This document shows positions 3,211 through 52,649 of a stretch of DNA of 55,973 bases, piece after piece. The stretch covers positions 1-55,973 of the forward strand of contig NMRA01000842.1 of the NCBI GenBank assembly GCA_002633005.1, in the 5' to 3' direction. Both the position numbers and the translations under genes were made by a program. This DNA comes from Phoronis australis. Taxonomy: Eukaryota; Animalia; Phoronida. Positions within the stretch are counted from its first letter, which is position 1. Every line of letters begins with the position of its first letter. The notes under the pieces are model-generated. The model was not told the DNA's origin and searched no databases. It saw only the letters and a program-made list of their open reading frames with translations.

Positions 3211-3691
3211 GAAAAATTCAATTTATTTAAGTCCGTTGTAAGAAATTGATTTCAGTGTTTTAACTCAAGTGTCATCGTAAGTTCGACTAACTTACCAGAT
3301 GTTAAAGTTTCAAAGCTTCCAAAGTTGAAACAAATCTTAGACTAAAGTCGGCTTCTTGGAATGGGCCACTGGACATCTTTCCAAGGTTCTACACAACAAC
3401 GTACGTGACCTAGGCAACCCTGCGAAACTACATAAGGCACGCGGCATCTTGCCTATTTTTATTTTTTAGTGTCTTGCATGGGTACAAGGCTGTTGCTCCT
3501 TACGATGGCCTGCTTGAATCTTTATAGAATACTATGTGCTGGGTTCTTTACTCTCTTTGCTATTACTGCGCCGTATTGTACAGATGAACCAACAATCCCA
3601 AGGTTCACGATAATGACGTCATTATTTTTGAGCAATACCAGGAAGTCAGACTTTGAACTTGGAATGTTAATTTTACAGTGGAAGTAAATGC

Positions 3692-3929
3692 AACAGTGTT
3701 TGTAAACAGTATTTGTAAACAGTGTTTGTAAACAGTGTTTGTAAACAGCGTTTGTAAACAGTGTTTGTAAACAGCGTTTGTAAACAGTGTTTGTAAACAG
3801 CGTTTGTAAACAGTGTTTGTAAACAGCGTTTGTAAACAGCGTTTGTAAACAGCGTTTGTAAACAGTGTTTGTAAACAGTGTTTGTAAACAGTGTTTGTAA
3901 ACAGTGTTTGTAAACAGTGTTTGTAAACA
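3692..3929. repeat. 13-bp minisatellite (gtaaacagYgttt), about 18 copies
   Basis: Directly visible; accounts for repetitive ORFs 3605-3973 and 3673-3930. Confidence 0.97.
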
Positions 3930-5283
3930 TGTGCTTCTCTGCTTACCATGTACTTAGCATCATTCTTAGACATTTTCTCGATTTTTTTTCAAAACCCGCA
4001 CAAGCGCATACAAACGACCAGTCGGCTACAATCACCCACGTACTGGCTTCCATTGACTAAAGACAAGTTGTGCCATCCGCGACAAAAACGCACCAATTTT
4101 GTTCATATCATATTTGGAGATTAAACAATTAAAAAAAAAACCATATCGCCGCATCGGTTTCAAAAAAAGAACAATACCGACCACAACCAATTTATAATTT
4201 TTGGCCTTACGTGGTGAAGAAATCGGTGTCTTTTTACATGTATCAGACACATTTAGGTAAACCGTGGTCGTAGTGCCGTTTATGTTATCTCCTCAACATC
4301 GTCTTATAATCATATTTGTCTGAAGCATTTTCCGTTTACGTCATTAATACCATGCGTTTTTATTCTGCGTGCTACTTTATTGTTTTGCATTGTATTGTAT
4401 TGTATTGAATTCGCTATCGATGGTGCTGCCTTGCATGAAATCTAGTGTTTCCTGGAAAACGTGACAGTTGTACTCTATCTGCGCTCCTTATTCGAATTTG
4501 AAATTGACCACGACACTGCATGGTTCAAGCAAATTTACACTTAGTTTTCGAAAGCTCTGTTAACGGATTAACACTGTTTAAGGAATTATTCACTACTTGC
4601 ACACTTTGGTGTCGCTATTAAAATGATTGTTGTGCACTGTTGTTAAGGACACTATGCATCAGTTTTAACGTTAACGTGAAAGCGCGCGTGTTCCAAACAT
4701 GCAGAACCACTATAGTTTAGACACACCTCGTTCTCAAGCATAATGACTAATTCGTGCAAATAGTGAATAGAGAATTTCACATTTTATCTTTAAACTATGA
4801 AAGTTCAATTAGCACTTCACGAACTTGTTTCACAGGGATCGAACTAGATATCGTCGGGTATTGTAAGATTTGGGACCATTTCGTAATATCTGTCTGTTCA
4901 TTATTAAGAAAACTGCAATATTTGCCGGTTACGGGCAAGTTGTTATAATTTCGCCACTGTCCTTGGTTATAGACACAGCATGTTGCAATAAATACCAAGC
5001 CGGTGGAAATGGATACAAAAGTCATGCAATTAAAGTAAACATCAGGTTTATGCAGGATCTGGTGACGAAAAGAACAGGGATCTTTTTAGAGCCCAATATT
5101 TCGTAACAACTGTGAAGTTAGCGCCATTCCAAATTTCTTTAGGAACTGTTGCTGTACAAAAAGTGGAACAAACCCACCATCAACACATGCATACGACTAT
5201 GACCGGACTATTCTTCCGATTTAGTGCGTTTTAACGATAGCACAGCATAATTTCTGAGAATGATTTTAACAAGGTGTCAATTT

Positions 5284-5514: not shown

Positions 5515-5997
5515 TATTGTGCGTCAATGAAGAGTCGAACCACAAACACGTCATTCAGGGCTCTTGAAACCGAAGGGGGGGGGGGCGCTCAGATCTACAT
5601 CATTACAAAGGCGGTGTTGAATGCCACCGTAACAGTTGTCTGGGGCTTAGGGAACCAGAGCGATGAGCAGTGTAAGCGAGAAATTCTCCACATGGACAAT
5701 ATGCAGGCATTAGGTTAAACCGGGAGCCTGCATAGTCCTAAGGACCGGAGGCAGCGGAGAAGAGAAATACATTGACAACGAAACAGATTTTCAAGTGTAA
5801 GTTTGTTCCAATTTTAAATAAAAGAAGGCACTGCATTTCTCCGGGGAAGCCTAACTGGCAAGGGGTGTTAGAGTTGTTTGTTACCTTTCTCTTCCCTTTT
5901 GAACTTATATACCAGATAGTAGACATAAATTGACGCATTATAATTAAAATTGCGGCTTATTACCTGCATTGTAACCGTATTTCATTTCATATTTGGG

Positions 5998-6190
5998 NNN
6001 NNNNNNNNNNNNNNNNNNNNNNNNNNNNNNNNNNNNNNNNNNNNNNNNNNNNNNNNNNNNNNNNNNNNNNNNNNNNNNNNNNNNNNNNNNNNNNNNNNNN
6101 NNNNNNNNNNNNNNNNNNNNNNNNNNNNNNNNNNNNNNNNNNNNNNNNNNNNNNNNNNNNNNNNNNNNNNNNNNNNNNNNNNNNNNNNNN
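5998..6190. other. Assembly gap (193 N) with the same sequence on both flanks
   Basis: catttcatatttggg precedes the gap (5983-5997) and follows it (6191-6205), then a poly-G run. Confidence 0.97.
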
Positions 6191-6489
6191 CATTTCATAT
6201 TTGGGGGGGGGGGGCTGCTGTTGGCTTCCAACTCTTTTCCTGCTTTATATTGATATCCTCGTTCAGGGCCCATTCACGGAGTAGAGTCCCATCCCATTGT
6301 GAAATTGTACAACGTTTCGTGTTAAGGAAGGTCACTTTTGGGAGGGTCAGATCATCGTGGAATGAACATTCACTCTTTTCTATAATTAATACTATAAATT
6401 TTCATAATACAAGACCACCTTTCATACAGGTTACGTCGGTTTTCTGATGGAAGAGGGCCCAGGGATAAATGCTCCTTTGGCCCTTATTA

Positions 6490-15138: not shown

Positions 15139-18100
15139 GTACACATACATGTACCGAAGCCTAGATGGCGTATTTACGTGTAACAGTTATCCGAGGCCAG
15201 AAATTGCATCTTAAGAGCTGTTTGACACCAATATTTTTATGCCATGCGATCTAAGTCAAGAGTTAGTCTCTTTGACTAAAGGAAGTTTGTAACAGCAGGC
15301 CCGTAGGAAGGCAAAAATTATTGGGTGAGGGGGGAGGGTTGGGGGCACAAATCATTTCGACTTGGCCAAATAACCTCCCCCCACCCCCATCGCTACCACC
15401 TCCGGCAACTCCCCTCGCCGCCGTGATCCCGATGCCACAATATTTGTACCAAATCTCCCACGTCCGCCCTAGATAGGGGGCACAGTAGCGGCTTTAGGTC
15501 TGGCCAAGGGGCCATGACACCCATAAAATTCTCTCAGATTCCATTTGGCAGTTCAGGGGCGCGAATTCCTCAGACAGGTAAAACCTTGACTAATAATCCT
15601 CCCTCTGCCCAACTCAAAATCCTGGATGAAGCCATCAAGAGTCGAGTAACCGTGAACCAACACGTAGAGTAAGAATGGGCCTAGGACCAGTACAGCGACA
15701 TGTAGCGAGGAGCTGCCTCAAGTAGCTATAGCTGAGATCTAACATTGTGAAAATACGAAATTCCCAATGAACTAAACTATTTGCTGGTCAGCTCAGCTGT
15801 GATTCACTTGAGACAGGCAGCTCGTACGGGTCGTCTGCGCTCGCCCTAAGGTCAAGTTTCGTTTTATTGTGATCCAGTTTCGGGAAAACTTTATTTTATT
15901 ATGGTCATTCCTTGAAGGAGTTTTCTTGAAAAGGTGAGGTCCCGAAGACCCTGGTATACTGTCTTTGGGGCTATTTCAAAATGCTTATTCAAAACACGAC
16001 CGCTAGTCCAGTTTCTGGTGGCTGGGGAAAAGGATACTGTGTCCCAAAAATGCACACACTTCTTGAACACCTGGAATTCAAATTCAGTTCCCGTAGATCA
16101 CTGTGATTCTGAACGGGCCTACTGCCTATTTACATCTTATTTTCAACGTGGGTACGTTAGTCATGACGTGAACGCAATTCAGTTTTGAAGAACAAAAATT
16201 CATTGCTCAATTCTACTGGAAACTAATTAAAACACCAATGAAGTGCAAAGACAACCTTTCCAAGCAATGAGTTTAATTTTATTTATTTAAGGATTTTTAA
16301 AGTGTTTTTTTTTTCTATCTACGGTTTGTGAGTCCGAATTTGAGAGCTGTTTTAGATATTCAAAAATCGTCCAAATGTAATTTACTATTTGGATCGGATT
16401 ATTGAGTTTTTCCAAATTCAGGCTACAATTAAATTCACTGAAACATCATCAGTTCTTCCAAGATTAGCTTCTAATTGTCAAAAATATTCTATGAATCTTT
16501 TGATTTCCGTAGATACGTCAACAAGTAAATCAGAAACCAAAGAATTTGTTTATCAAAACAAGAGTGTTATAAGCAATTTCCGCATGCATGCTTGCTCTCT
16601 TGACGGGTAACCGGGGAATATGGGAGCTGGGGCATTCGTATTAAGGTGTATTTTGCTCATTTCAAATTTGCCTATAACGGTTCACTAGGTAAACTTGGAC
16701 TCCATAGACGAAAAAACGCTGAACTGTTTGTTTGTGATTGGGAGAGTTCTTTGAGTACCCCCTTTCGACATGCATTTACACGGTCATCACAAATAGTAGC
16801 CAAGACACCAGTGTTAACCACATGTGTCGACTGTCCCGGTCCCACGTCTTTGTCGGTTGCCACGGTTTTACCCAGACTCCTGAAAATTTTTGGGGGGCCC
16901 TTGCCTCCCGTTCCCCCGCTTCCTACGGTCCTGAACAGGTATTTATGTAGCTCACAGGCTCACATTTGCCTCTCTTGTAAAACGCGACGTCGGACTGTAT
17001 AACTCTTTAAGATTCGGTTGTGTGATTATGCTTTCTCACGTTGATTAGCCCGGTAGAATCCCAGATGTGCTCAAACAAACTCATGCGCTACCCAGAGTAC
17101 TTGCATTGTAGTGAATTTACAGCCTCATATCAGTTTTGTCATTTCTGATGAGTTGGCACAGTGTTGAAAAGTGAACGCTTGCCACGTAGTCTTGGAAGTG
17201 ACACTGGATTCTTTCAACTATAAGATCTGTTATTATTGGAGCGAATAACAAAACACGAGGTTGCTTTCGATGAAGTTTATTTGGTCTCGTATCTCCGTAT
17301 ATATAGAAGTTGTGGCACGTACCAGATGAGTACAGGGTACCATGAACTAACAGAAATGCATTCAGGTACCAGATGGGTACAACAATTCGAATGGTTGCTA
17401 GTTCGTAGGCCTACCAAATGGGTACACGGTATCAGATGGGTATTGGCCGAATGACTACCAAATTAATGGGCTCTCGCAAAAAGGTATGTACTGTACCCTC
17501 CTTGTGACGTCCTTCAAGTTGACGAAAACTATGCTGATTTGGACTATTGATTTTAAGAATTTAGCCACTCATCACGATGACAAAATGAAACATAAATTTC
17601 TAACAAGATTAGTTTTTCTGAATGAAGTACTCGAATTTCACTAGGAGTCGCAAGCGAAGCGAGAGACCTTTACCAAAGAAAGGCTGCACTGAGAAGATCG
17701 TTCGGTAGACCAAGTTTCTTGCGAGAAAAGCAAGTCTTAGATCTCTCTTTTAGGGTGTAGTTCCTCAACATCAACATGAAAAGCATACACTGACGTCACA
17801 CCAAACTGGTGACATGTAAACAAAATTTATTACAGGCTTTAGAAAAACAGAAACAACTCGAAGTGAAGGTGGAAACCTTGACGAAAGAACTGGACATGCT
17901 GAAACAGAGAGACTTTCTACCGGCACCTGGTGTTGGTGAATCATTCGAAGATACGGAAGAAAAGGTATGTACATGTAGGTCATGTGATCGAGTAGAGACA
18001 AGAGAGCGAGAATGCCGGGTATCACGAGAATACCGGGTATCGTTAGAATACCGGGTATCGTGAGAATACCGGGTATCGTGAGAATACCGGGTATCGTGAG

Positions 18101-18658
18101 AATACCGGGTATCATCGCCTCGATGGGAAATGCCAATTCTCTCAAGTTTTTGAAGGTCTGAGCAACACAGCATCGTGCATACTTGTGTTGCTATGAAATA
18201 GCGTGTTTATTTCAGTCGTATTTGTAAGACGTTAGCCTTTATACATGTTTATCTTGATCACATCACTCGACCTATAATTAAAGACTGGAAATAACTCCCC
18301 TTTCGGGTCTGAGAGAACTTTTCAGACTTACCTGTAGGTCACGTGACGTAATCAATATACCAGTTGTATATTACATGTATGAAGATTATTAATTCCTACT
18401 TATACTGATACTACATCAATCATTTGCAAATTCACACCCAAACACACAAGTGGAAGAAATTACCTAATTTAAAGCACTGCCACAATTGCCTAATTTTCAC
18501 TAACATTACACATCTTAATAATTTTAGATATTTAAAATGTTCTAATTGTTTTGATGCTGGAGAATTAATATTATTATTCCTGCATCTGATGAACATTAAC
18601 AGCAGCATCTATAAGGGGTTGAGCACACTTGCACACAACATGTATATACATGTACATA

Positions 18659-42469: not shown

Positions 42470-44895
42470 ACAGGTAAAGACTGAGCGGGCCCTTGGGATT
42501 GGTCGCAAGAATCCTAGCAAACCTCGACCAATCATCGTAAAGTTGACTTCGTTCAAGGACAAGTTGCAGATCTTAAAAGGCAAAAGATAATTAAGGAGTG
42601 AAACTCAATACTCAGTGGCTGAAGACTTCAGCAAGAATGTTCGTATCGCTAGATCAAAGTTATAGCTGTTCTCAAGAGAAAATAATTTTATAGAAGCCAC
42701 AATAAAATTCGATAAGCTTTATCACAACAGGAAAATGTACCTGTATGACGATCATATAGACAAAGTTGTCGGCAACGAGGATAGATACATGTACATCTTT
42801 AGAGATAGAACGGATACAAATGAAGAGGACGACAGTCAATAGCAAACAATGACAAGAGAAATGAAAATAGGATCATGGAATATAGGGGGGATAGAAAGTA
42901 AGCTACGACAAAATAAAGGAGAAATTTAAAAAATAATTAGAAACTACGACCTCATAGGATTCATTGAATCACACGCAAGAGCAGAGCATGAATTTGGCGA
43001 TCTCTTAGAAAATTATTCCACGTTCACATCAGTACGAAACATACATAACGACAAAGTATCTGGTGGAGTGACAGTAATGGTAAGGAACAATTTGGGAACC
43101 AAAATAACTCGCATCTGTGAGAATTTGGAAGACATAGTATATTTGCATCTCAAACATTTGTTTGCTGGCTCAGACAAGCCAGATGTAATAATAGGTTTTA
43201 TTTATTTCCCTCCCGAAGGGTCAGCATACTACAGCCACGACATTTCTGAATGCGGTGTTGATCGTCTCGAGGATGACTTTACCTGCTTAAAGAGTAATGG
43301 GAAATTTAACCAGTCACGGGTTATTTTGACAGGTGACTTTAGTTCAAGGACAGCTACACTCAGAGACTACATGTACATCCCAGAAGACGATATCACGCAT
43401 ATCAGTGTCCTTGCCGATAGCGGCTGTTGTTATGTTCAAAATAATTTTGAAAAACCAAGAAACAACCAAGATGCGAAATCGAATTACTTTGGCAAAAAAC
43501 TTGCCAAATTTTGTGCAGTATTTGGTACGCACATAGTTAACGGGAGATACCCCTCAGACAGAGAAGGAAACTACTCGTTCGTCTCCACTCGTTATTGTTT
43601 GCGGACGATTTGGTGCTTGTGGCGGACACAGTGCCTGGTCTTCAGAGGAAATTAAATGTATTGCACAACTACTGTGTGGATTGGAGACTTTGTGTTAATC
43701 TTGATAATACAATTAGCGTTATTTTCAAGCGAGTTGGGACTTTGTCGTCAGAGTAAAAGTGATTTTACAATAAGAAATTGGTAGAAACGAAATCTTATTA
43801 CAAGTATCTTGGTGTGACATTTTCTTGCAGATTAAAATGGAATGAAACTTGTAGAATATCAGCTTTATAAGCTAGAAAAGCAATGAACATGTTAAAAGCA
43901 TGTTTAACCAAAGTGAAGTGTAGATCCCCGCATGTACATGTATGTTATAAATTGTTTGATAGTATGGTAGTTCCTATATTGTTATATGGTGCTGAGATAT
44001 GGGGTACAGTATATTCGAAAGACATAGAAAGTGTTCACAATGATTTCTGTAAATGGGTTGCTGGTGTCTCACAGAAAACAAGTAACGTTATGGCCAGAGG
44101 AGAATGCGGCAGGCATTTATTATCTGTGAAATACTTGTGCAGACCAATAATCTACTGGACCAAAATTCTACAGATGAATAACCCCAGATACCCAAAGAAA
44201 AGTTACAGGATGCTGCGGGAAGACTGTGAAAGGGAAGAGCAAATTGGGCCAGTGCAGTTAAAGATATTTTATTCAGATACGGGTTTGGGGAGGTATGGAT
44301 AAGTGTACCGGGTAACATTGATTTATTTATATCAGAATTTAAGCAAAGATTGTTGGATTGTGGCGCCCAAGAATGGAGGACATCAGTGCAGAGCTCTAGC
44401 AAGTGCTCATTTTACTCTATTATCAAAACAGATTTATCTTGTGAAGAATATCTTTACAGTCTACCACCAACTCTACGTAGAATTTTAGCCAAATTCAGGT
44501 GTCCTGGACACCAACTGAAAATAGAAACTGGTAGGCACCATGACATTCCAAAGGAAGATAGACTTTGCGAAATTTGCAACCGACGAAATACACTTATTAC
44601 TTACCTGTCCCGTACTTAACGACATTAGAATGAATTTTTTACCAGAAATATCCCGACACCATACTGACATCGAAAACGTCAAATAATTATTCAAAACAAA
44701 CTCTGGAAATCTTTTGAAAAGACTATCCTTATATGGTATTAGACAGGAAACTCTAACATTGTAACGTGTAAATATGTATATATGTATTGAATACCCGGAC
44801 ATGAAATTTCCACCTGTACCAAATGTTGCAATGTAATATGTACAAATGAGCTTAGCTCCAAGTGCAATAAACAACCTCTCTCTCTTTCTCTCTCT
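42470..44895 (+). mobile_element. Degenerate, internally deleted CR1/L2-group LINE
   Basis: ORF1 tail ERALGIG...PRPIIVKL...EDFS; ORF2 from ATG 42849 with IGSWNIGG, YFPP, ILTGDFS (APE endonuclease); then LFADDLVL (RT), YKYLG, ILLYGAEIWG, KFR..H.LKIETGR..RLCEIC; AATAAA plus (CT)n tail; stops and frameshifts. Confidence 0.93.
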
Positions 44896-47332
44896 AAAAG
44901 TGTATCTTTTACTAGAGGAAACTCGTAATCTAACGCGCAAGTACATACATATAGGATGGGATTGAACAGTCTGAGTGAAGTATTTAAAAAATCTGCGGAA
45001 AATGAAAGAAACATAGGAATTGGAATCGTATGGGATAAATACAAAACCTACATGAAGTAATATCCCACTCGACATTATTCCGCGTATCGACCTCGACCTT
45101 TTAGCCTCCTGGGATATTACTTCATGTGCGCCACTCTCGGCACGTTTTGTGTATATACATGTAAGCTTCCCTTATTTTGTACAGTAAAACGATTGATTGG
45201 TAATTAATTTTAAAACCCCACATTTTTGCATACTTGTCTAAAATAGTGTAGGTATACATGTACGTAGGCTTCGGGAACCAGCTAGGTTTGATTGGGCTTT
45301 CGAATGTGTTGTGAATAGAAAAATCCACTAGTTAATTAGTAGATTCGTCTTACTTCAAATCTACCGCTCCCTCTACCATGGTTGGGAATTGCAACTGCTG
45401 AATCTGCTTTAAGCTCAGGTAGACGTCAAAAAATTCAAAATTACCAAAAATCTGATTGGATGGCAACATGTTTGCGGAATCAACAACCGATAAGTCACGC
45501 GCCTTCGAAATCTGTAGTGTTGGCTCGTGTTGAGTATCGACAGGAAAGATCTACTAGTGTACTTGGCTTCATTTTCAGCAGACGAGAAAGGGCCAAAATT
45601 CTGGGACAGGATAACGTTTGTTTGATGATGTGTAGCGTTTTTGAGATGAAATAGCTCGCAGGTTTTGATCCAGTTTGTACATTTTCTACTTGATGTAAAA
45701 AAGGTAGCAATTCCAGCGATGTGTGCAAAGCAAGACCAATCCAGTGTACAGTGCCTAAAGAAGCCATGATCAACTTCTTCAAGAGTATTCTAGCGAGAGC
45801 AAACATTTTACCAATCATAGAACTGCTCAGTTTATCTAAGTAGTGAGGACGATCAATGGAATTCGGTTAAGGTCACTTGAGAATTATGCTCTTACAGATG
45901 ACGTCATTGCATCCAGTTTGATGGTGTGTACAAGAGACAGCTACCAAATTTACACAAGGAAAAACCCCAGTCCTCCTCCATCAGCAGCTATCAAAATCAA
46001 GGCTTACTTGCAATCATATAAAATCAAAAAAAAATCAATATTGACTTTCACGCTCTGTCTTTACGCTTTTACAGGCAGAAGTGACGAAGACGTCGTTGAA
46101 GGTTTGGACCAGCATTAAAAGATGAAAAGACAAGCCATGGAACCCACGTGATTTACATGTATTTATTTAAATATATATCTCCAAGTATACGAAGTAAAAC
46201 CCGCGATACACGTTATAGAAGGGCAAGTAAACCATAATCCCAAACTTGGTAGTCTATTTTTGAAAAAGTACACCAGTAACAGTACATTTACAATGAATCA
46301 AACCAGAAATTTTACCCCAGTTTATACCTGAAACCAAGTCAAGACCATTTCGATCGCAACGTTTGTGTACAATACTACGTTAGAGAAATTACTAAGCGCA
46401 TTGTTATAATGTATATGTTAATGCTACACTGCCAAAATTGTCTTTACGATCCCCGTCTAGTAATACCACCGTGAAACAACAGGCTATACTATATATTTTT
46501 TATGCTAAGCTATTCGACTTCAGATTGCATCGTTTTTATCTTTTGACTCCAAAATCTTAACAGCGCCAGCCCTGCTCCATGCAGCGTTACAACAATTGAA
46601 ACAGAGACTGTTTTGTGGAATTATCCTCCGGGACAAACTCTTCCAGAACAGACCACTTGACCGATGGTCACATCTATTAAAACCTATCTTGAACGGTAAC
46701 ACCTGAAAAATTTGGATTCTACTGTATATTAAGAGCATCACTCTGAACCCACTCGTGCCATAATTTGTCAAATGTAACGAACGTATTGGTTTTATTTGTC
46801 TATGCCATCGCGAGAATTACCGCTGCCTACATGTATGACACCCAAACGCAATGGTGTTTTATTCAGACCTCTATTAAATACAACTGTTGTCGGCCTTTTG
46901 TTGTTTGTGCAGGGATCTCGCGGCGACGCAACATGACGCGAAAATGCGACATCAGCTATCATTTAAGCTTTGCTAGGACTACCTGGTTAGCCTAATACAT
47001 CTAAAATAACAAAATTCCTTTGAAATTAGGCTTTTTTAAAGTATAATATATAGTGTGTTTTGGATGTTAGATTTTAGACGTAACCACCAAGGCAAATGTA
47101 AGCGGTGACTTGAAACCTGTATGTAGGACCAGTCGGTTTATGAAGCAACTGTCTTCTGATGTGGTCACGCTACTATTTGCTGACTGTTTGTTTTCAAAAT
47201 TGTACACACTGCTTTACTTTCAAACAGCGTTTCTTTGAGATAATTATTTTCTAAATAAACCGTTTACAAATTGTGTGTATTCTGAAATTTCCCTCAACTA
47301 ATGTACATCTATATCTTGTTATTAACACACGC

Positions 47333-47811
47333 TTATTTAACTTGGTAGGCTTCAATGATGTCCCAGTTTCCACTGCAGCCAAGGTTTTCATATCCAAGTC
47401 CGTACAGAACTCCAGCAACGCATTCTTTGTTGCCATTGAAGTCGAGCTGGCTCGTAAAAGATGGGAGCGCCCCATTCACAATATTTTTATCCGATGGTGT
47501 GCCGCCGAACATGAATTGGGAAGCTGTGCAATTTCCATTTCCAGTGCAATTGATTTTGAATATGAACGCATTTTCGTCGTATTTCCTAAGCACTGAAGAC
47601 AACCACGAAAGCGTGGTGTAGCCACCGTAATATACGCCAGTGTTCGAATCCTTTCCGAGCACTATAGTAGGAGGTTGGACCTCTGCCGCCATTAGAAACG
47701 CATTCTTGTTCAACCCGTCCTCAGTTGATCGATAAATTCTCTTAAAGGTTACGTCAGGTAACCACTGGGCAATCCAATTCAAAGATTCTTCTGTGATCAA
47801 ACTCGGCTCAG
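47333..47811 (-). CDS. TLDc-domain exon (last exon)
   Basis: Acceptor tatttcag; SLI..WLP..IYRSTEDG..F..PTIVL..YYGGYTTLSW..DENAFIF..IEAY motifs; TAA at 47335-47333. Confidence 0.88.
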
Positions 47812-50800
47812 CTGAAATATTGTAGCACAACCTGTTCAAGCAACGCGAAGCATTAATAAGAGTCTACAGTGCACCGCAAACGGTTTGATTCCAGAAGAGT
47901 TATCAAAGTCATGACAGGCACAATCACACAATAATTTGACCACAGGTACATGTACGTGTACAGTAGTACATGTAGCTGCAACAATCAGAAATGATAATTC
48001 ATACCTCATCCTTTAAAGCAACATCAAATCAAAAGAATTTTATGAATGACCAGTTTTCCACCTTAACTTTTCAATTACAGAGAGATAAAAATGTCATAAA
48101 GAAACTGCTTTACGCATCCAAAATGGCAGATGTAGCTAAATTATTTTCACATAGAACAGGCGTGAGATTTAGCCTCTACAAAATGACGAAGGGGAGCACA
48201 GCACGTGCTGGAACCATGAATAATTTAATTTCGGAAGCCAATTTGATAGCAAAAACACCCGTTTTAGTCCACGATAGTTTGGCCTATTTCAACCAGTGTG
48301 TTATTGCCTTGAAGTCATCGTTAATGCAGTAATTGCCCTGCTCCACACAAAAGTAGCAAAACACATGTTTCTGATGCCGACAAGTTCTTTCTACCACCTT
48401 TATTACGAATTACAATTTCGTGGACATCTTGGCGGGAGGAAATATAAGCACGCCTTTGCATTTTGTATTTTCCAGAAGGTTGACAGATTTTGACAATTTA
48501 GCAACGGAGTATCGCCCTTGAGAAGAGCGAGTTAATACATGTACATGTAGTTTAAAAAAGTGGAGGCATAGTAGCGTGTTTTATACAGCTTAAAAGCTGA
48601 AAGAAATAGCATTGTTCAAATGATGTCAAACCTGTCTGAAATAGTTGTGATAACTACACATCAAGCCGTGACGAGTATACTTCAAAATGGGATGCCTAGC
48701 TATGGAAATTGAAAGAAATTTTGCACTCTCATATGACATGATCATTTTGCTCAAACCTGGATTAGGTCGATAGTTTAAAGGGGCAGTAGTCCAAAAAATC
48801 TGACCGTTGGCCTTTCGGACTACAAATGCATGCACTAGTTCTCTTTCTATTAAAATTGCTTTTTGGTCAATGTTCGTCAGTTTGAAGTACATATAAATAA
48901 AGACAAAGATTGGAATTCTATTATTAATGGACGTGAAGTCACGAGTCTCATGAGGCGCCATTCTTTGTGTTGCAGCTCCCAGATAAGGGAATTTGGTTTA
49001 TTAACCCTTTTGATACATTGCATTAAAAGTTCATATTAAACATAGCTGGCTTCGCCGTTGGCCGTTTTTGTTCCATACAATCCACTTTCAGAGAAAGCTT
49101 GTTCAAATCACTATTTTCTATTACTGTGTTTTTCTAAGAATGTTGGGGCCCGTTCTACATCAAATCGTTGCGTGTTTTGAATGTCCGTTACCAGGTGACC
49201 CGGTGACCGCAGCCAACTAGTCGTTAGTTCTTGAAAAATGTCCGCCTCCAGAGTTCAACTTAACGCAATTGCATATCATCGTCAAACGATCCCCAGTTCT
49301 TTGAAAATGAATGTTTTCAACAAGAGACAAAACTCATTACACTGTGGGTATCCTAACGTTTAGATGTAAGTCGCGAGTAAAATATTGCTCTCTGAATTCA
49401 GTTCTTCGTGGCAAACTAATGATGGATATAGTTATATTTACAAACAACACAGTGCTTTCCGATAGTTCAGAAATAATCAACATTTGAAGTTGGCGCACGT
49501 CTAAACAAGATTTTAAATCTCAACCTCCTCGTTTCCAAAAAGTAGGTCTTCTCTGCATCCACAGCTGTCAAGACGTTTCTCACAATATCGTTAAGGCTGA
49601 ACGTAGGAACCCCTTTAAAATTCTTTTGGAACGACACTCGCTGTCCACTATGGAAACCCCGATGAAAACATCGAACCATAAATGAGATGATTATAAAACC
49701 TTTGAGAACCATGATGAATTAAAACTTTGCTAAACATGTATTATGCCCTCGTTCATATAATAATAACGAAAACGAAAACGAGTATTAGTAGTAATAGTAG
49801 TAATAGTAGTGTAAAACAAATAATAATTATAATAGGTAGCCAAATTCATATCGTGTCAGCCCCGACGGCTTTGGAATTCCTCTAGGAGAGGTATACAAAA
49901 GTGCCGCCTGAAAGGGTGCTTTTCACAGACAAAATACTCTCCAAAATGGTGTCATTTTTTTCGAACTATGCGAAAATTTGTAAACAAATTAGTCTCTAAA
50001 TGGGTCACTTTTTGTCCGAGCCCACCCTCTAAACGGTTACAGAAGGTATTCATTTTTTCAGGCGGCAACCGTCGCCCAAAAAAGACAACAGTACTCCCCA
50101 GCCGTGTCAGATACCACTTGTTCGTGATTTTGATAATTTTCTTTGCAATATGACTTTGGTTTCGTAAAATGTAACAATGGTACATTTCTCGCCAGTACAT
50201 TTTAGGAGAGGCTTGTGAACGTAAAATGTAACAACGACATAAAATGTAACAGCTGTTACATTTTACGAAATTGTTACATTTTACGGCTTATCAGCGCAGA
50301 GACCCTATATTCGGTTATAGAGATGCAGTTGGACCTCGAAATTGGGGACCATTTTATACCTTGCAATTCTATGGTTTCAAAGTTTGTTCTAGGTTGTCAG
50401 TATCTGGGTAAACAAAATACACCTGAGCTAGTTTCAGAGTCCGTCATTATTAATACGTTGGTAATATTGTCTAAAATCATAGTTCTTAGATTAGATCACC
50501 GCACTGTTGATTTCAAGTTTGAAAGAATGTTGGCTTTTGCTGTGGCTCAGGAACTCATATGTAGGCACCGAACGAACTGGTGAACTGTTGAAATTGTTTT
50601 TTTTATTTAAGTAGACAAGCTTTTGTATTGTATAAGTTGACTTGCTGGGTTGCGTATTGTTTAGTTCAAACGTTGAACCAATATGAACGCGATGTCGTCG
50701 TTGCTATCAATCATAACTGCAACCTGGCCCAGTGGTTTGTTTCATGAAATTCTGAAATTTAGCATTACCGTGCACACAACAATATTTCTGAAAAATCAGT

Positions 50801-52359
50801 AAATTTCACCTGAACAAAAATTTAAACACTTATATGCACGTGACTGATAGTTGCTGAGATAGTTTCATCTCTAAATTATTTCGCGTGCAAGATGCGCTCA
50901 TAATTACCATATTTCACCATTGTGTGGGATCGTGAGACCAAATTTCTGTCTGAAGTCATAAGCCACTTTCATGCAACCAACCCGTGGTCAAAAGTCTTCC
51001 ATTCTCGTCATTTCTCGCACAGGCGTTAAGTTTTCATTAGGCTTACCTAGACAAACTCGAGTTGAGCAACCCTCAGTCGAATTTCCCGAACAATCCTCGC
51101 CATTACCCACAGGTGCTGGCCTGGTGCAGGTTCTTGTCTTGTACGTCTCCCCGTTGCCGCAAGTTACACGGCATCTGAGGTCTTCCGAGCTCCACTCACT
51201 CCAATATCCTTTCACTGAAATACAGCACACATCACGAATTTTTGGCCGACCGGTCGGAAATTGGTCGACGACCGGCCGTCGACCGGTCGGCAAATTAGCC
51301 GACCGGTCGGCTAAAAATTAGCCGACTGGCAGCCGCCCGCAGTGCCGACTCATAAGGCGACCCCACAGCCGACCCTTCAGCCGACCCTTTAGCCGACCGG
51401 CCATCAGCCGACCAGCTGGTCGGCTGCTATTTTTAGGCTAGAGTAGCAGTTGCGTAATAGGTTGTCAGGCTCATACCACTTTGCGTGTCGATGCATATTC
51501 GTCTTAGCACAGGGTCAAATAAATTAACCTAGTTTTGCTGTCTCGGTTACATGAGTTCACGTCGGTTGTGTAACACCACTACTTCGAAGGTTGAAGGCAA
51601 GCGGCATTAGTAAACATTGGATTATGGACAATGCAACAAGTTTTGGATGAAAAACGTGAAAGTTTTCTTTACATTTGATCTTTAATTTGACTCCTGACGT
51701 TAACAAATTGTATTAGATCGGTTGCTTCCCGGTCAATACAACGCTGTATAGTCATTTTGTAAACGCGGCTGTTTTTCGCAGTCTTCGCCCACAATTGATT
51801 TTGTTTGTGTAACGCCAAACTGCATCGTTTTTGCGTGTTTTAAGTTATTCACCGGTCTCCTATCACGCGCCCATGATGAAGGATTAGTGAGTGAGTTGTT
51901 ACACCGCGAAGAGTTCTCACTCCGGGGATTTTATTTTCATAGTATTGACCCGGCGAAATTCACGGTCCAGTATGCCCTAAACCCATGGACTTCTACGGCT
52001 CTAACTTCGAAATCATACTATGGTTACGATTTCCACGAACTATGACGGTGACATCAAACACGGAATGACCACTGTTGAGGCTACAGCCAATTGTAGCTTT
52101 GCGCATTCTGTTTTCATGTATCGGTGACGTTAAAATCTGGGCTAGTTACATGTACACGTAGGCCCCTATCAGTTGGTCGTTCACGTTGTTCCAAAAATAA
52201 ACACTTTCTGTCAACAACATATTGACAAATTATGTAAAATAAAACAATTGTGAACGGGAAGATGTGAATACGTGGTGAAGAGGTATTGTCTCTACGCGGC
52301 ATATGTGCGTGAATCTTTGGTAAAGCGATTGCGATGGCAAAAAATGATAGAAAATACAT
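47333..52359 (-). CDS. Predicted secreted signal peptide + TSP1 + TLDc protein, 244 aa; complement(join(47333..47811,51047..51214,52272..52359))
   Basis: Three exons joined by two phase-1 GT-AG introns give a 735-nt open frame. Confidence 0.78.
50220..50285. repeat. Nested palindrome of AAAATGTAAC units, probably a MITE end
   Basis: Perfect 26-bp palindrome 50240-50265 inside cgtaaaatgtaacaa / ttgttacattttacg; another unit near 50164. Confidence 0.85.
51047..51214 (-). CDS. Thrombospondin type-1 repeat exon (phase 1-1)
   Basis: GYWSEWS...CRVTCGNG..RTCTRPAP..NGEDC.G....C...C (6 Cys); tatttcag| ... G|gtaagc; 168 nt. Confidence 0.92.
51240..51435. repeat. GC-rich CCGAC/GTCGG palindromic repeat cluster (MITE-like)
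   Basis: Several gccgaccggtcgg palindromes and agccgacc direct repeats. Confidence 0.8.
52272..52359 (-). CDS. Signal-peptide exon MYFLSFFAIAIALPKIHAHMPRRDNTSSP
   Basis: ATG at 52359, hydrophobic core, phase-1 donor C|gtattc compatible with the TSP1 exon; TATAAAT about 40 nt upstream. Confidence 0.62.
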
Positions 52360-52649
52360 CAAGGTGCACTTTTGAGAAGCAAAGCGTCTGGTGATATTTA
52401 TAGCGTATGATCTGGCCACCTCAGGTAGTAAGTGACGCTGAATGAGAAGTGGCAACTACATGTTTGGCTTGTAACGCCACCCCTCCCCGAGTTTTGCCAA
52501 TTCTAATCAGTCACCACTCGAGATTTGGTTCCGTTTCATTCCTAAAATCACAAAATAATTCTTCTGTGCTCAGCTGTAAGAAAAAATACAATTTTTTGAA
52601 ATGGTGCTCAGTCTTAAAAAAGTTTCCATTATGAGAACGCTTTATCAGA

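Follow-up and report, generated by a model that had tools for sequence, protein, structure and literature searches.

Proteins with a TLDc domain have been linked to disassembly of the V-ATPase, to protection against oxidative stress and to antiviral defence of the IFI44 type, and, to our knowledge, those studied to date are all intracellular. The thrombospondin type 1 repeat (TSR), when it has six cysteines and motifs for C-mannosylation and O-fucosylation, is an extracellular or lumenal module. Here we analyse a locus of the phoronid Phoronis australis at which an exon for each of these domains is present. The stretch of DNA analysed, hereafter the window, is contig NMRA01000842.1 (assembly GCA_002633005.1), positions 1 to 55,973 of the forward strand; its 55,973 nucleotides are eukaryote-like, with a GC content of 36-44%. 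A genuine TSR exon and a genuine, complete TLDc exon share one strand of the window, the minus strand, and their phase-1 boundaries are compatible. On balance, we lean slightly towards the view that the two are spliced into one small TSR-TLDc protein of the secretory pathway, whose TLDc domain would be an extracellular binding module rather than a V-ATPase regulator. An earlier note on this DNA had read the locus as a three-exon gene for a secreted protein, and we return to its first exon below.

The TLDc domain is encoded by exon 3 (47811-47333, minus strand, 479 nt), which starts at a phase-1 acceptor (tttcAG at 47812/47811), spans 158 amino acids and ends with a TAA stop codon (47335-47333). 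The Pfam TLD profile (PF07534) matches it at 30.6 bits, above the cut-off of 24.5 (E 3.9e-7), with only profile positions 6-93 of 170 aligned. An exhaustive phmmer search with exon 3 against 1.84 billion representative proteins returned 273 proteins at E<=0.001, 14 of them at <=1e-10 and 0 at <=1e-30, with a top identity of 44% over the matched stretches. The relatives examined throughout are the 150 of these 273 matches that were listed and scanned with Pfam, together with 120 listed with precomputed Pfam domains from a profile search (153 matches at E<=1e-5 among 3603 candidates), 270 in total. Pfam TLD is present in 147 of the 150 listed phmmer matches, and a feature search of the ESM Atlas returned TLDc clusters in 30 of 30 cases (top score 0.96). 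In an alignment of 32 sequences the family invariants F38, G62, G63, W69, F118 and E153 are retained. Because these invariants are kept through the last strand, E153 included, the domain is complete, but it is divergent and its C-terminal half is shortened.

An AlphaFold2 model of exon 3, built on the same 32-sequence alignment, has a mean predicted local distance difference test score (pLDDT) of 78.2 and a predicted template modelling score (pTM) of 0.76. When this model was compared with the PDB using Foldseek, the best 12 rows were all TLDc structures or complexes containing them (E 1e-4 to 1.3e-2, TMq 0.53-0.65), while the E value jumps to 0.27 at row 13. These rows include zebrafish OXR2 (4acj), Skywalker (6r82), NCOA7 (8ar6 and 7obp), the V-ATPase complexes with mEAK7 (7u8o, 7u4t and 7une), NCOA7B (7uzg) and Oxr1 (7fde), and 8ar9, an entry whose protein is not named in its title. 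A sequence search of the PDB retrieved only the Skywalker TLDc domain, at a non-significant E of 1.2. The model thus indicates that exon 3 adopts the TLDc fold, and the earlier note's assignment of this domain is borne out both by the profile and by the predicted structure.

Exon 3 shares the fold, the Pfam family and the family invariants with the characterised TLDc domains of OXR1, NCOA7, TLDC2, mEAK7 and TBC1D24/Skywalker (4acj, 7obp, 8ar6, 6r82, 7u8o and 7fde), although it is only 12-16% identical to the solved domains. It differs from them in its shorter C-terminal half, in two NCT sequons, in four extra cysteines and in the replacement of a near-invariant cysteine by alanine, and its predicted neighbour is an extracellular TSR instead of a cytosolic partner. 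Of 31 aligned relatives, 30 have the near-invariant cysteine (position 42), whereas the four cysteines of exon 3 occupy positions at which 0, 2, 3 and 0 of these 31 relatives carry one. Two of the four, C88 and C94 in exon-3 numbering, lie on either side of the turn that links the modelled strands 82-88 and 94-99, making a hairpin-closing disulfide plausible in the model. Loss of the near-invariant cysteine together with gain of four at non-conserved positions fits an oxidising compartment.

The TSR is encoded by exon 2 (51214-51047, minus strand, 168 nt), which is bounded by an acceptor (tttcAG at 51215/51214) and a donor (TAG/GTAAGC, the slash marking the splice site) and is symmetric, with phase 1 at both ends; TSR exons of this 1-1 phase are typical shuffled modules. 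Pfam TSP_1 (PF00090) matches at 30.8 bits against a cut-off of 21.6, covering profile positions 3-49 of 49, and six cysteines can be read directly, as can the WSEW (WxxW) and CRVTCGNG (CxxTCxxG) motifs that the earlier note had named. It thus resembles the canonical TSRs of the superfamily that includes thrombospondin, properdin and the spondins. Compared with these and with small secreted TSR proteins, it lacks the third tryptophan of the WxxWxxW ladder (WSEWSSED), and its partner domain is TLDc, a combination with TSP_1 that is unseen among the 270 relatives listed.

Neither exon has a start of its own. Exon 3 has no in-frame ATG upstream within its open reading frame (ORF), its first methionine is residue 40 and its start coincides exactly with the N-terminal boundary of the TLDc domain; it therefore requires an upstream phase-1 exon. 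Exon 2, whose surrounding ORF (50988-51317) likewise has no in-frame ATG, is the nearest coding exon on the same strand, and its phase-1 donor matches. An alternative exon 3 acceptor 20 nt upstream was rejected by reasoning from the sequence, as it is in phase 2 and incompatible with exon 2. The predicted intron 2 between the exons (47812-51046, minus strand, 3235 nt) is a GT..AG intron of phase 1 and consists largely of diverged repeats. Both exons are open throughout (56 and 159 codons), and their GC content at third codon positions (GC3) is 0.49, compared with a background GC of ~0.38-0.40. We regard the exon 2-3 junction as predicted.

When the candidate first exon of the earlier note is added, the three exons join in frame (88+168+479 = 735 nt, 244 codons, 0 internal stops) through two predicted introns that are both GT..AG and of phase 1. 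The predicted 244-residue protein contains 10 cysteines, six in the TSR (44, 48, 59, 71, 79 and 84) and four in the TLDc part (174, 180, 216 and 231), as well as four sequons (NTS25, NST74, NCT173 and NCT179). The coordinates, phases, splice sites and reading frame given in the earlier note are thus confirmed, but no read of the three RNA runs described below joins the exons at either junction. No paralogue of the spliced model was found in the window by tblastn.

Most TLDc relatives have cytosolic architectures, namely multi-TLDc, BTB-TLDc (27 of the 150), B-box/RING-TLDc, TIR-TLDc and GTPase-TLDc proteins, the last including mollusc IFI44-like proteins. A minority carry modules of extracellular type, and fn3 is combined with TLD in 18 of the 120 listed. 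Among the minority are a Montipora foliosa protein (P0255) with a signal-like N-terminus (MKTLSLLL...), PAN, EGF_CA and TLD; three Porites lobata proteins with EGF arrays and TLD (P0262, P0267 and P0268); an Acropora millepora protein (P0221) with a hydrophobic (signal) anchor, collagen, Ig and TLD; a protein with EGF and TLD (P0040); one with teneurin-type EGF, laminin-G and TLD (P0102); the choanoflagellate proteins of Salpingoeca rosetta (P0063, XP_004988782.1) and Microstomoeca roanoka (P0036), which have a signal-like N-terminus, fn3 and TLD; and two bacterial proteins (P0141 and P0125). As judged from these predicted sequences, fusions of TLDc with extracellular modules are already present, uncharacterised, in public coral and choanoflagellate proteomes.

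The predicted TSR-TLDc layout resembles that of these proteins, with the reservation that the junction here is predicted only. In the coral proteins (P0255, P0262, P0267, P0268 and P0221), cysteine-rich extracellular modules directly precede a C-terminal TLDc domain that likewise contains several cysteines, and the proteins start with a signal-like segment or, in the case of P0221, with a signal anchor. They differ in having PAN, EGF, Ig and collagen modules in place of TSP_1, and in that their TLDc domain retains the FHxxCD cysteine; their identity to the TLDc domain of the window is only 22-31% over 30-54% of the latter, which reflects general TLDc similarity. The choanoflagellate proteins also have a signal-like N-terminus followed by extracellular-type repeats and then TLDc, but they are giants of 1949 and 4500 amino acids with several TLDc copies, fn3 (and TNFR_c6 in P0036) and no TSR, and are 27-29% identical to the TLDc domain of the window. 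Particular to the present locus are thus the TSR partner, the lost conserved cysteine and the small size. Our literature search found no characterisation of the coral proteins. At the level of titles and abstracts, we found no TLDc architecture with thrombospondin repeats, nor anything on secreted or extracellular TLDc or specific to a TLDc expansion in invertebrates, and the words "secreted", "extracellular" and "signal peptide" are absent, by word search, from a 2026 review of the TLDc family. In a separate comparison, a match at a metagenome locus (L001) was rejected as spurious, since it was a short-pattern match on a GC-rich bacterial contig.

For what can be read at this locus, a secretory-pathway protein that combines the TSR with TLDc is the most economical model. 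Its predicted location follows from the six-cysteine TSR and the cysteine pattern of the TLDc domain, and not from the proposed leader; should exons 2 and 3 be spliced together, TLDc must fold in the same compartment as the TSR. The earlier note's suggestion that a TLDc domain has been moved to the secretory pathway would not describe a unique case, as predicted coral and choanoflagellate proteins already bring TLDc together with EGF, PAN, Ig, collagen or fn3. We propose that the predicted protein enters the secretory pathway and is small, bipartite and either secreted or associated with the cell surface. By analogy with other TSRs, the repeat would likely tether it to (sulfated) glycans, to the matrix or to the surface of a cell or microbe, and the TLDc beta-sandwich would likely offer a second binding surface outside the cell, independent of the V-ATPase. 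We infer a function as an extracellular binding protein; the predicted TSR neighbour would argue against a cytosolic location, and the role in immune recognition put forward in the earlier note is purely conjectural.

A broader idea, which we hold tentatively and at less than even confidence, is that TLDc has an old, unstudied extracellular life. In that case, this locus and the coral and choanoflagellate fusions would all encode secreted or surface proteins in which TLDc is a V-ATPase-independent module for recognition or adhesion, and the version in the window would have dropped the conserved free cysteine and gained disulfide pairs. If a TLDc domain does lie behind a TSR, it must fold in the oxidising secretory pathway and hence would be unable to act on cytosolic V1, and a compact protein of ~25 kDa would provide a test case for the TLDc fold acting alone. 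The value of this example is lowered by a gene model that lacks transcript support, by an uncertain 5' end and by comparable predicted fusions that are already public.

A number of observations weigh against a joined TSR-TLDc gene. Three RNA runs (X2-X4) with the same species label, all from one study and with ~18-19% of each read, were aligned to the window at 93% and at 80% likeness. No joints were found at 52272/51214 or 51047/47811 in any of them at either level, so that reads across these junctions, to which the earlier note had looked for confirmation, are not found in these runs. Read depth is essentially zero on exons 2 and 3, with ~1 fragment on exon 3 in X4. A word-based search with exon 3 for proteins of near or longer lengths detected no protein from the locus in a collection of 5.8 billion proteins. 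The architecture TSP_1+TLD occurs in 0 of the 150 and 0 of the 120 TLDc relatives listed, none of which is close, and a phmmer comparison of the TSR exon with the 150 gave no match. Agreement in phase between exons 2 and 3 has a 1 in 3 chance and is weak evidence, the 3.2 kb of intron 2 are made of repeats in repeat-rich surroundings, and the first canonical AATAAA lies 470 nt beyond the stop codon, with none nearer. In the structural model, segments 122-133 and 136-144 have a pLDDT <50, and the geometry of the C130/C145 pair (exon-3 numbering) can therefore not be judged from it. Finally, a young repeat ends at a distance of only 6-7 nt from the acceptor of exon 2, a proximity that could impair splicing.

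This repeat (51221-52468, ~1.25 kb, not assigned to a strand) holds the predicted intron 1, the candidate exon 1 and a TATA-like box, and it bears directly on how the gene would begin. At 93% likeness it is covered ~20x by reads on both strands that are mostly 90-99% identical. Loose read ends accumulate at 51221, where X2, X3 and X4 contribute 35, 29 and 19 of them, and at 52468, with 9 in X2; the flank consensus at 51221 has an agreement of 0.47-0.65, and the flanks are therefore many and different. A small run (X1) contains a contig of depth 45 that aligns to 51642-52494 with 9 mismatches. By this read signature the segment is a multi-copy repeat, probably a transposable element. No second copy turned up when the window was blasted against itself, and no terminal inverted repeats were found. 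Dense short palindromic units around CCGACCGGTCGG occupy 51237-51430, with 9 direct copies of a 15-mer and many inverted pairs; this cluster sits at one end of the repeat, beside the exon 2 acceptor.

Candidate exon 1 (52359-52272, minus strand, 88 nt) runs from an ATG at 52359 to a phase-1 donor (CAC/GTATTC) and ends in ...IHA/HM. It has no Pfam match, and its layout is signal-like, with n-, h- and c-regions, a hydrophobic core of 11 residues followed by proline and then IHA/H, with alanine at -1 and isoleucine at -3. Either it is a co-opted piece of the repeat or it is a chance ORF, in which case the true 5' exon or exons would lie elsewhere, possibly beyond the window. The first of these options would make it the true first exon of a gene with a repeat-derived promoter and leader, whose 244-residue secreted product would be cleaved after ...IHA; we consider this rather unlikely. 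In its favour, it is in the right phase and ranks first among the signal-like candidates of the minus strand between 51215 and 55973, with a 10-residue hydrophobicity of 2.68, and a TATA-like box TATAAATA (52392-52399, minus strand) stands ~33-40 nt upstream of its ATG, itself within the repeat. An extra T behind 52285 is present in most copies of the repeat (at 93% likeness, 45.4/45.4 in depth in X1 and 14/19, 16/22 and 5/5 reads in X2, X3 and X4; at 80% likeness, 25/35, 20/39 and 7/7 reads); as this T falls within exon 1, the donor is out of phase in those copies, and the copy in the window is free of it. Set against this are the weak donor, which lacks the usual G at +5, a GC3 of 0.34, a composition that has a non-coding look and is like the background rather than like exons 2 and 3, and the 5' untranslated region, which would be only ~10 nt if TATAAATA were the promoter box. 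When both strands of the window (2 x 55973 nt) were scanned loosely for an ATG, a hydrophobic 10-mer and a phase-1 GT, 65 signal-like candidates emerged, a density of 0.58 per kb per strand; the 1.1 kb preceding exon 2 should thus hold ~0.65 of them by chance. Among the best-supported read ends listed, no copy shows a loose end or a joint at 52272, though a weak one could be hidden. Furthermore, exon 1 has ~20x read cover whereas exons 2 and 3 have nearly none, and its reads therefore do not come from the mRNA of this gene. Of the earlier note's signal-peptide exon, then, the hydrophobic core and the phase hold, while its place in a repeat, its donor, its base composition and its chance-level frequency speak against it.

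It is also possible, though we give it no better prospects, that exon 1 is spurious and that the TSR and TLDc exons form the 3' end of a larger, multi-exon gene for an extracellular protein, with additional modules and the real leader upstream of the repeat or past the end of the window. Such a gene would account for the lack of a start in exons 2 and 3 and would suit the shuffled character of 1-1 phase TSR exons; the coral and choanoflagellate proteins offer a parallel, having several N-terminal modules with TLDc last, and insertion of the repeat may have displaced upstream exons. However, the minus strand between 51215 and 55973 showed no further ORF that bears a domain, and diverged repeat reads cover this stretch completely. 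This gene and the three-exon gene are both sub-cases of a spliced TSR-TLDc protein. A different outcome, which we regard as improbable, is that no TSR-TLDc protein is made, the exons being either a silent relic or two remnants of unrelated origin lying among repeats. The near-zero RNA depth without joints, the young repeat adjoining the exon 2 acceptor, the missing protein in large collections and the lack of any TSP_1+TLD relative speak for this. Yet both exons are fully open, the six TSR cysteines and the TLDc invariants are intact, and GC3 is raised in both. Moreover, at 80% likeness 80-95% identical reads cover both strands of intron 2 but not exon 3, marking exon 3 and its near flanks as unique sequence amid repeats. 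The silence itself comes from only three runs of one study, which says little about expression generally, and the gene may simply be silent there. We continue to favour, by a little, splicing of exons 2 and 3 into a TSR-TLDc protein.

Several repeats in and beside the gene are conspicuous in the RNA reads. In intron 2, an inverted repeat of 66 nt with arms that are 88% identical (50160-50290) gives rise to joints between opposite strands, and is probably a small hairpin-forming repeat element expressed elsewhere. A second segment within the same intron (48560-48950) is covered in X4 only, by minus-oriented reads at 33-55x with consistent differences and a replaced segment of 63 nt (48654/48718, 43 reads), and is a repeat copy with strong expression in that sample. 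Immediately beyond the 3' end of the gene, diverged reads cover 46700-47035 at 100-170x, and their loose ends fall sharply at 46708, 46782, 46838, 46967 and 47034; the element, a repeat or of small RNA-like type, is highly expressed, and its reads come from other loci.

Elsewhere in the window, ORFs at 42930-44620 on the plus strand resemble a decayed retrotransposon without long terminal repeats (non-LTR); a weak match to the Endonuclease/Exonuclease/phosphatase family reaches 17 bits, short of the cut-off, and the subsequent ORFs have no Pfam match. A run of N at ~5990-6190, an assembly gap, appears as X in the ORF at 5944-6447. Two ORFs on the minus strand, at 3522-3953 and 17771-18206, consist of tandem peptide-like repeats (CLQTLFTNTVYKH units and IPGILT / DTRYSH units) and are probably minisatellites rather than genes.

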